Origin: a phage
Reading direction: 5' to 3' (one strand)
Assembly: GCA_018296565.1 (NCBI GenBank)
Contig: GCA_018296565.1_3935.1
Length of the DNA: 64,000 nucleotides
Position 1 is the stretch's first letter. Every line of letters starts with the position of its first letter. Of the stretch, positions 171 to 63,334 are shown one piece after another. Position numbers and translations under genes: made by a program. A model generated the notes under the pieces. That model did no database searches. It had not been told where the DNA came from and saw nothing but the letters and a program-made list of their open reading frames with translations.

Positions 171-199
171 TTGACATTGAGATGTGACCACTTTATAGT
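171..199 (+). promoter_or_regulatory. sigma70-like promoter TTGACA-N17-TATAGT within the tRNA array
   Basis: gttgTTGACAttgagatgtgaccacttTATAGT read directly; consensus -35 with 17-bp spacer and near-consensus -10. Confidence 0.45.
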
Positions 200-402
200 A
201 ACCTTAGTTTTCGTTGCGTAGCGTCTATTTTGCAAATTTAAAATAAATGCAAACGACAATGTTTTTCTGGCAGTAGCTTGATAGGCTAAACACCAGTGAG
301 GTCTTCCAATCCCTCATCAAAGAATTTGGCGTACTCGCCCACGGTATGATTAATAAGGTGGGCATCTTTAAGGGCTTTCTAACAGAGTCTTTAAAGATTA
401 AT

Positions 403-479
403 GCACCCTTAGTTCAATTGGATAGAGCAACGGTCTTCTAAATCGTTAGTTACAGGTTCGAATCCTGTAGGGTGTGCCA
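403..479 (+). tRNA. tRNA-Arg (anticodon TCT)
   Basis: Acceptor gcaccct/agggtg, anticodon stem acggt/atcgt with loop cTTCTaa, T-loop GGTTCGAATCC, CCA encoded. Confidence 0.6.
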
Positions 480-627
480 AATAGTTAGCAGATTACTTAT
501 ACGACCTAAGCGGGTCTTCCTGTAGGGAGGTGGTCTGTATCTCATGTTTTCCAGAACATGTAAATAATCTGAGAAGGGGCTTTACAGTGTTGAGATAATA
601 GGGTAAGCTTCGAATTATAGTTTTAAT

Positions 628-698
628 AGGGGTGAGCTATGGCAGCAATAGAGTCTCCAAAATTCTTGATTAGAGTTCGAATCTCTACACCCCTGCCA
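628..698 (+). tRNA. Compact tRNA, probably tRNA-Trp (anticodon CCA)
   Basis: Acceptor aggggtg/cacccct fully paired, T-arm tagag-TTCGAAT-ctcta, anticodon stem agagt/attct with loop cTCCAaa. Only 71 nt with a shortened D-arm, so identity is tentative. Confidence 0.4.
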
Positions 699-712
699 GA
701 ACAGGTGCTTGT

Positions 713-1117
713 ATGAAACTTTGTAGAAAATGTTCTCAAGAAAAACCTTTAAGTTGCTTTCATAAAAGAGGGAATGGCTATCAGTCTGCTTGCAAAGATT
801 GTAAAGCTAAGTACTCGGCAAAGAGATACAAAGAAGACCCTACTTATAAAGCAAAAAGAAAAGTTAGAGCAAAATATGACAAAAAGAGGAACAGAGAGTT
901 CCTTAGTAGATATAAAAAGTTTTGCAAATGCAGATTATGTGGCGAATCTGAGCCAGTAGCTTTGGATTTTCATCACTTAGACCCTAAAGAGAAAGATTTT
1001 GCTCCAAGCAATCTTAAAACTTACTCTAGAGGAACTATTAAGCGTGAAGTCCGTAAGTGTGTTGTGCTTTGTTCAAACTGTCATAGAAAAGTTCATGCAG
1101 GGCTGTTAAGTATTTAA
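713..1117 (+). CDS. HNH homing endonuclease inserted in tRNA array
   Basis: 134 aa, ATG start. Cys-rich N-terminus (CRKC, CKDC) and C-terminal HNH signature DFHHLDP...LCSNCHRKVH. Confidence 0.7.
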   Translation: MKLCRKCSQEKPLSCFHKRGNGYQSACKDCKAKYSAKRYKEDPTYKAKRKVRAKYDKKRNREFLSRYKKFCKCRLCGESEPVALDFHHLDPKEKDFAPSNLKTYSRGTIKREVRKCVVLCSNCHRKVHAGLLSI

Positions 1118-1130
1118 CAGTCTTATTAGG

Positions 1131-60370: not shown

Positions 60371-60392
60371 AGGCTCCTACGGGAGCCTTTTT
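60371..60392 (+). terminator. Rho-independent terminator after nampt
   Basis: Hairpin aggctcc-tacg-ggagcct followed by TTTT. Confidence 0.6.
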
Positions 60393-60409
60393 AATTTCTG
60401 GAGAAGACT

Positions 60410-60745
60410 ATGAAAATCAAAGAAATGAACATCAACATTATCTTAGAAGAACGTTGGGAGAACATCAAGAAGCCTGAAGATGGCCATAAGTTCCTCAACA
60501 AAATTTTAGTAGCAGCTAAAGAAGAACTGACTGGAAAGGTTGCAGCAGCAATCACAATAAAGGTTTGTGTAAAAGGTCTTCCACAACATCACCAGTTTGC
60601 ACTTGACGAGTTTAAAGAAAGCTTCTACAATCCAAACAAACAGATGCTTGAAAGTAACTTTGCAGTATCTACAAGTATCGTTCATGACAGAAGCTTTATC
60701 CTTTACAAAAATATGAGAGGTGAGTCATGCAAGCATATTGGATAG
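60410..60745 (+). CDS. Hypothetical protein
   Basis: 111 aa ORF, ATG start. Confidence 0.45.
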   Translation: MKIKEMNINIILEERWENIKKPEDGHKFLNKILVAAKEELTGKVAAAITIKVCVKGLPQHHQFALDEFKESFYNPNKQMLESNFAVSTSIVHDRSFILYKNMRGESCKHIG

Positions 60746-60903
60746 AAATTTTACTGTCACTTGGTAGTGTAGCAGTGTTCGTTTACCTTCTTTGCAAGTA
60801 CTATGCAGAACACAAAAAATGTGACTTCTGTAATGGGGAAGGTTATACAAGAGCAGGTTGTTGCCCTATGTGTGGCGGTTCTGGTAAAATGTTTAATAAG
60901 TGA
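60728..60903 (+). CDS. Small membrane protein with zinc-ribbon (unannotated ORF, 58 aa)
   Basis: ATG with agaggtgag RBS; N-terminal TM (ILLSLGSVAVFVYLL) then CDFCNGEG...CPMCGGSG; below the track cutoff. Confidence 0.35.
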
Positions 60904-60931
60904 TTTAACAGTAAACTAAGAGGAAAGTATT

Positions 60932-63298
60932 ATGCGCATGGTAAATGACCACGCAGAAGTGATTAAGAGTTCAACTTCTTTAGAGACGTCTCAAGCACAG
61001 ATTACAATGACACCTGAGATGTTCAGCCTTTTGAGTTCTGGTGTATACACCTTTAAAGAAAGGGCAGTGATTCGTGAACTGTCATGTAACGCAGTGGATG
61101 CTCAGAAAGAAGCTGGAAAAGAGAACATCCCATTCCATGTGCATTTACCTACTCGTTTTGAGCCTTACTTCGAAGTTCGTGATTTTGGAACTGGATTGAC
61201 TCATGATAAAGTTATGAGTCTGTACCTAAACTATGGAGCTTCTACGAAGAACGACTCTAATGACTACATTGGTGCAATGGGTATCGGCTCAAAGTCACCA
61301 TTTGCAATTGCTCAGTCATTCACAGTATCTAGTTATGTTGACGGTGTTGTTAATAAGTACTCTGTTTATCTTGAGAATGGTATCCCTCAAGTAACTAAGC
61401 TGACAACTAACCCAACAAAAGAACCTAATGGTTTAGCTGTACGTGTGGCAGTTGCTGACCACCGTATCTCAAAGTTCTTTGAAGAAGCTGGGAATGTGTA
61501 CTCATACTTCACTGTAAAACCAGAAAGTAATATTGAGTACAACGATGTATTAGCAGATATGAACGTCATTGCCCGTGAAGAAGGTGTTTATGATGCCATG
61601 ATTCATAAGCACAGCTGGCGTTCTAGTGATAACAGGACAGAGTTTAATGTGGTGATGGGTAACATTGCCTACCCTGTTAATATGGAAGCATTACTTGGCG
61701 ATGATTTCTTCAAAGTATTGCCAGAGTTTTTCCGTAGGAGCGTAGACCTTGTAAACATCTACATGCCTATTGGTTCAGTTGCTATTGCAGCTTCTCGTGA
61801 AGCATTGCAGATGAATGACACGACAAAAAATGTTATCATTGAGGCTACTAAAAAGATAACTGAAGCCATTACAAAGGATGTTATCAAAAAGATTAACAAT
61901 CAGCCCACACTCATGGATGCTGCACAGGCTTATGCTGAGTTGCGTTTGAACTCACGAGAAATGTTTAATGCTGTGTGTCCAAAGCTAGAGTGGGGAGGCG
62001 TTAAGCTTGATTCTCTGGAAGAAGAGTTGCTAAACATTCGTCGCGGGATTATCTACGCAGAAGACGGCTCAGTCATTTATGAGCGTGACGGTAAAGGTAA
62101 TATTAAGGTTGATAGGAACGGAAACAACATCCCTAAAGTAGATTACCTTTATGACCCAGTTGCTTATGTCAAGTTCAACTCTTTAGAGAGTAAGATTCGT
62201 GCAACAGCACTTTCCTACACTCAAGAGGCAAGTATGTTCAATATCTTTGGTGCAATGCGTAAAAGCCAAATTGAACAGTTTTTGTTCGTGATTAATGACC
62301 GTCGCAATAAAAATGGCACTGAGAAGACTGTAGGACGAAATCAAATCTTGCGTGGTGCATGTCGAGACTACGCTAACGAGTCAGGCCTGTTCCACAGATA
62401 CAATGGTATTGTGTTTGTATTCTCGACTGAAAAAGAGTTAGATGATTTAATCAATCTACACAAACTTGATAAAAGCTTGTTAAAGATTGTGAAAATGTCT
62501 GATAAGGAGCATCATTATCAGCGTAAAGAGGCTGTGAGAGGTGTTGTAAAACTATGGAAAGCTGTTCCAGCAGAATCTGTAGCTTCATACAAAGAGGTGT
62601 CAGAAGACTTAGACACAATTGAAGAACCTCAGCTTTATATTAAGGCAGTTGGTGACACAGTTGATGGTAGATGTTTTTGCTCATCTCCAGAAGATGTAGC
62701 TAAGTCAGTTGCTAATGTTATTGGAAAGACAGTTTATGTTTTCCGAAAAGCAAATTGGAAAAAGATACCAGAAGACTGGATTGAAGTAGATGAGAAGCTC
62801 TTGAACGACAGCTTAACTGATGTTCATTGGATTAATCATAACAGGTATATGACACGCATCTACATGAATGGTGTTCTTGACCTTACAAGTAGCTGGATTA
62901 TTGCCAGAAACTTTACATTCAATAACAGGAAGATTTCTCGTGGCTATTGCTATTCACGAGACACAAACAAAACTATCTTCTTAGAAGGCAATGAAGACGC
63001 TGTTGAGGCAATGTTTGGTAAAATCCAATACGTTGCTGCACCGTTTGCATACACTTACACTATTAGTAGATTGCAAACTTTGAAAGACTGCCTTGACAAC
63101 GATACAAAGCTGTACAAGAAAATTAAGAAAGCTGGTGACCGTATGGTCATTAAGGTGACAAACTACCTTTCAAAAAGAAAACAAGAAAACTTCTTGCTTT
63201 CTCATTTAGATTGGAATAAAGTGTCACCCATCGAAGTGAGTAAGTTCTTAGGCTTTGATGTGAAGTGTGTTCCAGAAGGGACTACAATTTACGATTAA
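60932..63298 (+). CDS. rIIA: rIIA-like protein
   Basis: 788 aa; N-terminal region matches remembered T4 rIIA blocks (RAVIRELSCNAVDA, VRDFGTGL, NDYIGAMGIGSKSPF), a GHKL ATPase-like fold. Confidence 0.75.
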   Translation: MRMVNDHAEVIKSSTSLETSQAQITMTPEMFSLLSSGVYTFKERAVIRELSCNAVDAQKEAGKENIPFHVHLPTRFEPYFEVRDFGTGLTHDKVMSLYLNYGASTKNDSNDYIGAMGIGSKSPFAIAQSFTVSSYVDGVVNKYSVYLENGIPQVTKLTTNPTKEPNGLAVRVAVADHRISKFFEEAGNVYSYFTVKPESNIEYNDVLADMNVIAREEGVYDAMIHKHSWRSSDNRTEFNVVMGNIAYPVNMEALLGDDFFKVLPEFFRRSVDLVNIYMPIGSVAIAASREALQMNDTTKNVIIEATKKITEAITKDVIKKINNQPTLMDAAQAYAELRLNSREMFNAVCPKLEWGGVKLDSLEEELLNIRRGIIYAEDGSVIYERDGKGNIKVDRNGNNIPKVDYLYDPVAYVKFNSLESKIRATALSYTQEASMFNIFGAMRKSQIEQFLFVINDRRNKNGTEKTVGRNQILRGACRDYANESGLFHRYNGIVFVFSTEKELDDLINLHKLDKSLLKIVKMSDKEHHYQRKEAVRGVVKLWKAVPAESVASYKEVSEDLDTIEEPQLYIKAVGDTVDGRCFCSSPEDVAKSVANVIGKTVYVFRKANWKKIPEDWIEVDEKLLNDSLTDVHWINHNRYMTRIYMNGVLDLTSSWIIARNFTFNNRKISRGYCYSRDTNKTIFLEGNEDAVEAMFGKIQYVAAPFAYTYTISRLQTLKDCLDNDTKLYKKIKKAGDRMVIKVTNYLSKRKQENFLLSHLDWNKVSPIEVSKFLGFDVKCVPEGTTIYD

Positions 63299-63304
63299 AG
63301 TGTT

Positions 63305-63334
63305 TGACAAGGGGCTTTTAAGCCCCTTAGAATA
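63305..63334 (+). promoter_or_regulatory. sigma70-like promoter TTGACA-N18-TAGAAT with palindromic spacer, between rIIA and rIIB
   Basis: gtgtTTGACAaggggcttttaagcccctTAGAATagcc; the spacer is an inverted repeat aggggc/gcccct. Confidence 0.45.

Follow-up and report, generated by a model that had tools for sequence, protein, structure and literature searches.

The early promoters of phages T4 and T5 are strong and consensus-like, have A-rich DNA upstream, serve early genes and clusters of transfer RNA (tRNA) genes, and are read by the unmodified host RNA polymerase. In T4, separate promoters close to the end of rIIA serve rIIB. The -35 element of the T4 early promoters is GTTTAC-like, and the polymerase is later re-programmed by MotA/AsiA and gp55/gp33. 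The present analysis concerns five promoter-like sites, referred to as S1 to S5, in a 64,000-nucleotide (nt) stretch of phage DNA (GCA_018296565.1, contig GCA_018296565.1_3935.1), the whole of which is called the window. It derives from a Felix O1-like myovirus of the genus Felixounavirus, with 94-99 % identity to phages wV8, EcoM2 and vB_SflM_004. S1 to S5 are very probably promoters of the host sigma70 RNA polymerase and members of a genome-wide set, at each of which transcription would be restarted, and the promoters are interleaved with hairpins because the intergenic gaps are just 50-80 nt long. In contrast to T4, no counterpart of the re-programming by MotA/AsiA or gp55/gp33 was seen in the window phage. 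A search of the window for T4 late and middle motifs gave TATAAATA once, inside coding sequence, and no MotA box, and all sites have a canonical -35.

Promoters of this ordinary, largely known kind have in part been published for close relatives. In Felix O1, in which neither an RNA polymerase of its own nor a sigma-modifying protein was recognised, five putative host-type promoters were listed, including P45 (= S1) and P102 (= the site at 43361 of the window), and it was left open how transcription passes the many terminators (PMC3185647). The 42 BPROM sites tabulated for UAB_Phi87 include homologues of S2, S5 and the sites at 4471, 60340 and 32094, the 4471 homologue being given as TAGACA/AGTTATACT and that of S5 as TTGACA/CCTTAGAAT (PMC4837284, Table S1). 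Two 'promoter' features are annotated in the Erwinia phage record NC_011811. S3 and S4 appear in neither the Felix O1 nor the UAB_Phi87 list, and the two papers offered neither statistics nor an analysis of conservation and drew no connection with hairpins. The present analysis adds support from statistics and genome comparison, a fuller catalogue and the promoter-hairpin arrangement, which together give a transcription map, conserved and open to testing, for phages widely used in Salmonella and Escherichia coli typing and biocontrol.

The likeness to E. coli sigma70 promoters includes a TTGACA or TTGACT -35 element, a spacer of 16-18 nt (mode 17) and a TAnnnT -10 element. The UP-element and extended -10 variants of E. 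coli also have their likeness, in the TGn of S2 and of the site at 39054 and in the T-tract plus A-tract (at about -50 to -40) of many genome-wide members. The phage sites differ in lying on a virulent phage, in being packed together with hairpins in gaps of 50-80 nt, in having been predicted from sequence, and, for S3 to S5, in having no clear UP-like tract.

Probable sigma70-type promoters in the window

All five sites of the original prediction were present, with coordinates within 1 nt of those first given, and share the general form TTGAC(A/T)-N17/18-TAnnnT on the + strand. S1 (171-199, tgTTGACA-17-TATAGT, the number being the spacer length) is intergenic, 3' of tRNA-Ile and at the 5' edge of a conserved RNA, with a predicted +1 at about 206. 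S2 (27863-27891, tgTTGACT-17-TAATAT) lies 37 nt 5' of two small open reading frames (ORFs), which begin at 27935 and 28130 ('putative holin' in the annotation of relatives). S3 (43538-43566, gtTTGACA-17-TAGAAT) is intragenic, inside the conserved ORF 43439-43723, and S4 (43877-43905, gtTTGACA-17-TAGAAT) lies 30 nt 5' of ORF 43942, which encodes 285 amino acids. The earlier label of that product as a single-stranded-DNA-binding protein (SSB) was unconfirmed: it had no Pfam or PDB match and belongs to a PHROG family without assigned function. S5 (63304-63333, gtTTGACA-18-TAGAAT) is between rIIA (60932-63298, +) and rIIB (from 63378, +).

The -35 hexamer agrees with TTGACA in at least five of six positions at every site, being TTGACA in S1, S3, S4 and S5 and TTGACT in S2. 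The spacer is within 17 +/- 1 nt (17 nt in S1 to S4, 18 nt in S5), and the -10 hexamer has T1, A2 and T6 throughout: TATAGT in S1, TAATAT in S2 and TAGAAT in S3, S4 and S5. All five sites are co-directional with the local genes, and S2, S4 and S5 are intergenic, 30-38 nt 5' of a start codon. An extended -10 (TGnTAnnnT) is present in S2 (TGtTAATAT) and in the site at 39054 (TGtTAATCT), and not in S1, S3, S4 or S5. Of A/T tracts near -40 to -60, S1 has a partial one (aataaag) and S4 and S5 have weak ones; S2 and S3 have none.

The five had been presented as one near-identical family, which overstates their likeness. A common TAGAAT in three of them was borne out, and TTGACA-N17/18-TAGAAT was found three times against 0.06 expected. 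The context gtTTGACA, ascribed to four sites, is confined to S3, S4 and S5, with tgTTGAC(A/T) in S1 and S2. Because their spacers are unrelated, the sites are independent matches to the host consensus and not copies of a repeat, and with at least 12 such sites in the window the choice of these five is arbitrary.

Chance does not account for the signal. TTGACA-N17-TAnnnT occurs eight times in the window against 1.5 expected. Matches to TTGAC(A/T)-Nk-TAnnnT were counted for k = 6 to 30, separately for the locally transcribed and the opposite strand. Spacers of 16, 17 and 18 nt gave 3, 10 and 6 matches on the transcribed strand, where the other spacings averaged 1.7 (Poisson P ~1.6e-6), and 0, 1 and 0 on the opposite strand, which shows no peak. 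The same peak at k = 16/17/18 was found in the four genomes used for comparison, namely wV8 (3/18/11), Shigella phage Sf14 (Mooglevirus; 4/20/10), SUSP2 (Suspvirus; 3/17/12) and Erwinia phage phiEa21-4 (Kolesnikvirus; 6/15/11). Nineteen of the 20 window matches are co-directional with the genes, the sole antisense match being lost in relatives, and eight lie wholly and two partly within the 6.15 % of the window that is non-coding (P ~1e-5 to 1e-7). The predicted 5' untranslated regions measure 20-38 nt at six sites. The sigma70-type assignment is thus well supported indirectly, by the hexamers, the spacing, the orientation, a distance of 20-40 nt to the start codon, a spacing peak on the sense strand alone and retention across three to four genera. 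Polymerase binding, start sites and promoter strengths, as used here, are predictions from the sequence. A possible second class with 22-nt spacers, indicated by a small bump at k = 22, was rejected; its matches are mostly intragenic, heterogeneous, or a secondary TAnnnT beside one at 17 nt. Enrichment of k-mers in non-coding DNA yielded no further promoter motif, just terminator pieces and GGTNN repeats.

S1 to S5 and seven other sites are retained in the Sf14 and SUSP2 alignments, where their flanks are merely 70-85 % identical; the inner -10 bases drift between functional variants while T1, A2 and T6 stay. At S1, TTGACA is kept in wV8, Sf14 and SUSP2, the -10 changing from TATAGT to TAAGAT in Sf14, and the Erwinia phage has TTGACA-17-TAATCT at the same position. 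S2 is invariant in 24 sequence variants. In other genera S3 becomes gcTTGACT with the -10 changed from TAGAAT to TAAAGT, and the TAGAAT of S4 becomes TAAGAT, TAATAT or TAACAT. At S5, compared in 28 viral-contig loci, the -35, the stem in the spacer and the -10 are kept, and the loop and start region vary. Equivalents are found near the same gene junctions in phiEa21-4, that of the 39054 site being one of the features annotated as 'promoter' in NC_011811.

In the ORF that contains S3 (...ECLTKVDRFYRML...), all 27 variants retain the codons TTG ACN for Leu-Thr. The -10 remains TAnnnT where the encoded residues change from YRM to CKV, which points to selection acting on the DNA signal in addition to the protein. 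ORF 43439-43723 (+) overlaps the end of the primase/helicase gene. The predicted S3 start is at, or within one base of, an in-frame ATG (43574) in Felixounavirus, which is not conserved in other genera. The S3 transcript would be a leaderless or nearly leaderless mRNA for the C-terminal 50 residues of this ORF.

From these comparisons the window appears to hold at least 12 conserved co-directional sigma70-type promoters, and a genome about 25-30. Contrary to the original prediction that no comparable motif precedes the structural operon, TAGACA-17-TATACT is located there at 4471-4499 (+), conserved in Sf14 and SUSP2. This site is about 110 nt 5' of the small ORF that precedes terL, and its -35 lies within the 3' arm of the terminator at 4427-4486. 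About 50 nt downstream of the promoter, a terminator-like hairpin with a T-run (4552-4575, +) is a candidate leader or attenuator element. Two further features lie in the leader (4506-4611, +): a hairpin at 4519-4535, in which G-U and A-U pairs replace one another from genus to genus with pairing preserved, and a mini-ORF of eight codons (ATG at about 4587) overlapping the beginning of ORF 4612. In its arrangement the region is reminiscent of an attenuator ahead of the packaging and structural genes.

Three further promoters are on the - strand: TTGACA-17-TATTTT at 32066-32094, ahead of ORF 32021-31638 and with TATACT 5 nt further on; gtTGTTGACA-16-TATACT at 33875-33902, with an A-rich tract upstream and a hairpin (33845-33888) over the -10; and TTGACA-17-TACCTT at 36259-36287, just 3' of the DNA polymerase gene, with a weak spacer hairpin and a TTGACA kept even in the Erwinia phage. 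On the + strand, TTGACA-18-(TGt)TAATCT at 39054-39083 lies in the divergent polymerase/gp104 region and has a second TTGACA within its spacer. TTGACA-18-TAGGCT (54323-54352, +) wraps the nrdD terminator hairpin at 54330-54361 (z-score -4.8), and TTGACA-16-TATGAT (60340-60367, +) has its predicted +1 within the 5' arm of the terminator at 60368-60391. In most members of the genome-wide set, a T-tract and then an A-tract (ttttAAAAAAgttgTTGACA) lie directly 5' of the -35, at about -50 to -40, and resemble a UP element; S3 to S5 have no clear tract of this kind. Because the 43361 site (P102 of Felix O1) falls within primase/helicase coding sequence and has no TAnnnT at the -10 in Sf14, it was excluded from the core set.

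The same 30-nt module, aaaaagNNgTTGACAAnnnACTTGACAAGGTGT, occurs at 39045-39083 (+) of the window and at 23790-23840 of wV8, in both divergent control regions. Within it are two TTGACA boxes, 12 nt apart, of which the second falls in the spacer belonging to the first. In Felix O1 no promoter was found in the polymerase/gp97 region (PMC3185647).

Hairpins at the promoters and competing explanations

Both dyads that had been described at the promoters exist, each 1 nt from the coordinates first given. The arms at S2 are AAGATGGTG (27876-27884) and CACCATCTT (27908-27916), and those at S5 AGGGGC (63310-63315) and GCCCCT (63322-63327). When the 12 promoter windows were folded and compared with shuffled sequences, seven had z-scores of -2.1 to -5.3, against a mean of -0.35 (sd 1.0) for coding controls. 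The hairpin is located in the spacer at S5, around the -10 at S2, S4, 33902 and 54323, over the -35 at 4471 and across the predicted start at 60340. In all seven cases RNA derived from upstream has both arms and RNA started at the promoter is without the 5' arm. At the 60340 site the full hairpin has -16.6 kcal/mol, and from +1 onward a 4-bp remnant of -8.2 kcal/mol is left. The hairpin AGGGGCU-UUUA-AGCCCCU (63310-63327, +) fills the S5 spacer; its stem is kept across the 28 loci with varying loops, GNRA loops among them. At S2 an interrupted 19-bp hairpin (27873-27919, +) encloses the -10 (dG -27.6, z -4.1; z -5.3 in a second estimate). The S4 dyad (43885-43892/43907-43914) flanks the -10 and shows a compensatory A-T to G-C change between genera (AGAGTA/TACTCT to GGAGTAC/GTACTCC), by which the pairing is kept and not the sequence. 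Support for the pairing as such is limited to this one change and to the varying S5 loops.

The proposed sequence of events is that the host sigma70 holoenzyme would start at these sites from the beginning of infection, with each promoter heading a small transcription unit and re-initiating past the preceding hairpin. The S1 unit would consist of an RNA resembling transfer-messenger RNA (tmRNA) and of tRNAs, the S2 unit of two small ORFs, S3 and S4 together of small ORFs and the 285-residue replication-module protein, and the S5 unit of rIIB. The hairpins would end or stabilise the upstream transcript and be folded by read-through RNA, and RNA started at the promoter would escape the hairpin, its 5' arm being missing. 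Re-initiation at promoters interleaved with terminators is proposed as an answer to the question about terminators in the Felix O1 paper. Timings from reverse-transcription PCR (RT-PCR) in Felix O1 fit this reading: ORF 79, homologous to the second of the two ORFs behind S2, has its maximum at 5 min, as against 60 min for the adjoining upstream tail-fibre genes; the maxima of rIIB and rIIA are at 10 and 25 min, respectively; and ORFs 45-49, which follow P45 (= S1), reach theirs at 5 min (PMC3185647).

S2-started RNA (27897-27960, +) contains the arm CACCAUCUU, which could pair with GAUGAGGUG, a stretch that contains the ribosome-binding site of ORF 27935, and hide that site; in read-through RNA, CACCAUCUU pairs with the upstream arm instead. 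That such an alternative fold gates the translation of ORFs 27935 and 28130 is speculation (dG -15.2, z -1.4, no covariation).

It is very improbable that the sites are functionless chance matches to the sigma70 consensus, as might be expected in AT-rich DNA (39 % G+C). Loose matches are indeed common: a generic scan of the first 20 kb gave 55 promoter-like sites against 46.5 expected, the octamer GTTTGACA alone is not enriched (5 found, 4.2 expected), and TTGACA-N18-TAnnnT alone occurs four times against 1.7. Chance would not, however, account for a spacing- and strand-specific peak in five genomes, for matches that are co-directional and enriched in non-coding DNA, or for the retention across genera of all intergenic sites with T1, A2 and T6 while the sole antisense match was lost. 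A different proposal accepts the promoters and sets S3, S4 and S5 (gtgtTTGACAAgG ... TAGAAT) apart as a temporal class needing a phage factor, like the middle promoters of T4. Around the -35 these three agree over 8-9 nt, their -10 is the same, and all lie in the replication/nucleotide-metabolism module and have no clear UP element, an A/T tract being seen at most other members; furthermore, ORF 104 of Felix O1, the homologue of the gene after S4, peaks at 25 min and not at 5 min (PMC3185647). The -35 of S3 to S5 is nevertheless a perfect sigma70 hexamer at canonical spacing, whereas promoters of the MotA type replace the -35; there is no MotA box, no AsiA/MotA-like function has been recognised in the phage group (PMC3185647), and the shared flanks are not kept in other genera, as the gcTTGACT of S3 illustrates. 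A separate class is therefore considered improbable.

The dyads had been read either as operators or as parts of a combined terminator-promoter, and the second reading fits better. In the operator model a phage repressor would shut the promoters off at a set time, and a protein of the HTH_3 (Cro/C1-type) family is encoded in the window at 31132-31461 (-; 108 residues, E = 3e-9), the sole obvious transcription-factor candidate in it. The dyads overlap the -10 or the spacer, where a repressor would act, and the invariant arms with a variable centre in the 24 variants of S2, like the fixed 6-nt gap between the arms at S5, are what a dimeric binding site would look like. The arms have no common half-site, however (AAGATGGTG, AGAGTATC, AGGGGC, GGTGAGTA and GGTGGTGTGAG, with gaps of 4 to 25 nt), and no inverted-repeat consensus is shared by the promoters, arms and spacing differing at every site. 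A GAGTA/TACTC operator common to S4, 33902 and 36287 was tried and rejected, as GAGTA...TACTC pairs number two against 2.95 expected. The compensatory change at S4 also speaks against an operator; so do the hairpins at 4427-4486, 54330-54361 and 60368-60391, which have T-runs and are ordinary terminators, and the GGGGC/GCCCC stems, which recur as terminators elsewhere in the phage. Operator control is accordingly judged unlikely. Because no shared half-site was found, the evidence favours hairpins of terminator-promoter cassettes, and those at S5 and S2 may be weak terminators, processing sites or 3'-end protectors. The HTH_3 protein also has a sub-threshold match to sigma70 region 4 (21.7 bits, cut-off 24.1).

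Several points weigh against the reading of the sites as host promoters that re-initiate transcription past hairpins. The hairpins at S5 and S2 are not those of intrinsic terminators, their tails being UUAGAAUA and GGCUGAUG, respectively, with no U-tract, and the S2 arms, invariant in 24 variants, show no covariation, so that a role in protein binding is possible. S3 is inside coding sequence, and part of its conservation is at the protein level. The conserved intragenic matches at 7423, 8148, 46268, 50142 and 58426 are likewise inseparable from coding constraint, and the true number of promoters is therefore uncertain. The RT-PCR timings are semi-quantitative and come from the relative Felix O1, not from the window phage, and in the literature no transcriptome, 5'-end mapping, footprint or reporter result was found for these sites in Felix O1-like phages.

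A predicted tmRNA-like RNA downstream of S1

The predicted S1 start at about 206 (AGUUUUCG) coincides with the 5'-most base of a block whose conservation extends to the Erwinia phage. The predicted product of S1 is a tmRNA-like small RNA of about 160 nt (206-366, +), located before tRNA-Arg at 403. Its likeness to bacterial tmRNA (ssrA, RF00023) consists of the A-rich lead-in AAAAUAAAU and, after it, a GCA resume codon, a tag of 10 residues, stop codons in a helix loop and, further downstream, a pseudoknot. The tag template at 249-278 (+), GCA AAC GAC AAU GUU UUU CUG GCA GUA GCU, encodes ANDNVFLAVA, compared with ANDENYALAA in E. coli tmRNA, and two stops, UGA UAG, follow at 279-284 (+). The tag frame has no start codon or ribosome-binding site. 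The stops are held in the helix 267-270/293-296, which is followed by a 5-bp hairpin (297-316) and by a pseudoknot with stem pairs 330-335/343-348 and 337-342/358-363. Covariation supports the stop-codon helix, the hairpin and both pseudoknot stems: stem 1 has four sequence variants, all fully paired, and stem 2 has five complementary variants, with 3 bp left in one further member. In at least 28 sequence variants, all tags have 10 residues of the form AN(D/E)xxxL(A/M)(V/A)A followed by a stop, with synonymous changes.

By DNA search the element was found in 596 phage records, and it is without annotation in the matches listed and inspected. Its carriers include Ounavirinae, Ackermannviridae, N4-like Schitoviridae, lambdoid phages (HK633) and Klebsiella phages. 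The Rfam tmRNA models align the tag region with high posterior probability, at a total of 11-15 bits against a threshold of 47; at the gathering threshold Rfam returned tRNAs only, and the element is absent from Rfam. The phage RNA differs from bacterial tmRNA in its length of about 160 nt, in being phage-borne, in a 5' end complementary to the tag region of the host tmRNA and in having no detectable tRNA-like domain. No acceptor stem, T-arm or CCA was found by default ARAGORN here or in about 22 loci of the family, and complete tmRNAs were found in 26 other, unrelated loci of the same scan.

Genome announcements mention an ARAGORN 'ssrA' for Felix O1 and Moogle. Relaxed ARAGORN settings gave a 'permuted tmRNA ANDNVFLAVA' in the window, which was rejected; it borrows the arms of neighbouring tRNAs and stands alongside obvious false calls. 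The announced 'ssrA' is probably this relaxed-threshold composite call. According to two tmRNA database papers, phage tmRNAs are found only in mycobacteriophages, Bacillus phage G and, as a tRNA-like part alone, DS6A. A literature search for the tag peptides found nothing.

The invariant 5' end of the phage RNA, UAGUUUUCGU, is the exact complement of nt 97-106 of the host tmRNA, which carry the D-E-N-Y tag codons. For most members, pairing with nt 70-107 of the host tmRNA, around the resume codon, is possible over about 22 of the 27 nt at the 5' end (205-231 in the window). The duplex with E. coli ssrA was calculated at -28 to -30.5 kcal/mol, with z-scores of -3 to -5.8 in most members and about -2 in Felix-like members. 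The target segment is identical in the host tmRNA of 74 species, mostly Enterobacterales. The complementarity was found post hoc, and could reflect internal pairing or residual homology to tmRNA. S1 might be the dedicated promoter of a mimic of the message part of tmRNA, with which the phage would either block ribosome rescue in the host or provide it with another tag template; this is put forward tentatively, as a possibility that is less likely than its contrary. If true, the RNA would be a widespread phage imitation of the host ribosome-rescue RNA, perhaps pairing with it, and a previously unrecognised phage route to interfere with trans-translation.

Genome layout and repeats in intergenic regions

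The genes of the window are arranged in three blocks. The first (1-28500, +) holds 20 tRNA genes, terL at 4819, the head, tail and tail-fibre genes and two small ORFs; the second (28538-39023, -) extends from thymidylate synthase through DNA polymerase; and the third (from 39251, +) includes primase/helicase, exonuclease, the nrd genes, NAD salvage, rIIA and rIIB.

In the - strand unit, two gaps of 410-430 nt (32022-32433 and 33480-33909) consist of period-5 repeats, GGTNN on the transcribed strand and ACCNN on the + strand. They also hold recurring 'cacttaagNgtcttctaagagggtttttaag' and 'ccttttt aaaaggtctttaa' boxes, and the annotation of wV8 there is 'DR_4' only. One sigma70-type promoter is found in each gap, at the downstream end (by ORF 32021-31638) in the first and at the upstream end in the second.

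Intergenic direct repeats DR_1 to DR_9 occur among small early genes at 8000-13900 of wV8, a region outside the window, and some contain TTGACA-17-TAAATT. The copies of this motif at 9625 and 10489 of wV8 are in DR_8, and the '39-bp repeat' of Felix O1 is a close variant of this promoter-bearing sequence. The promoter-bearing direct repeats look like duplicated promoter cassettes.

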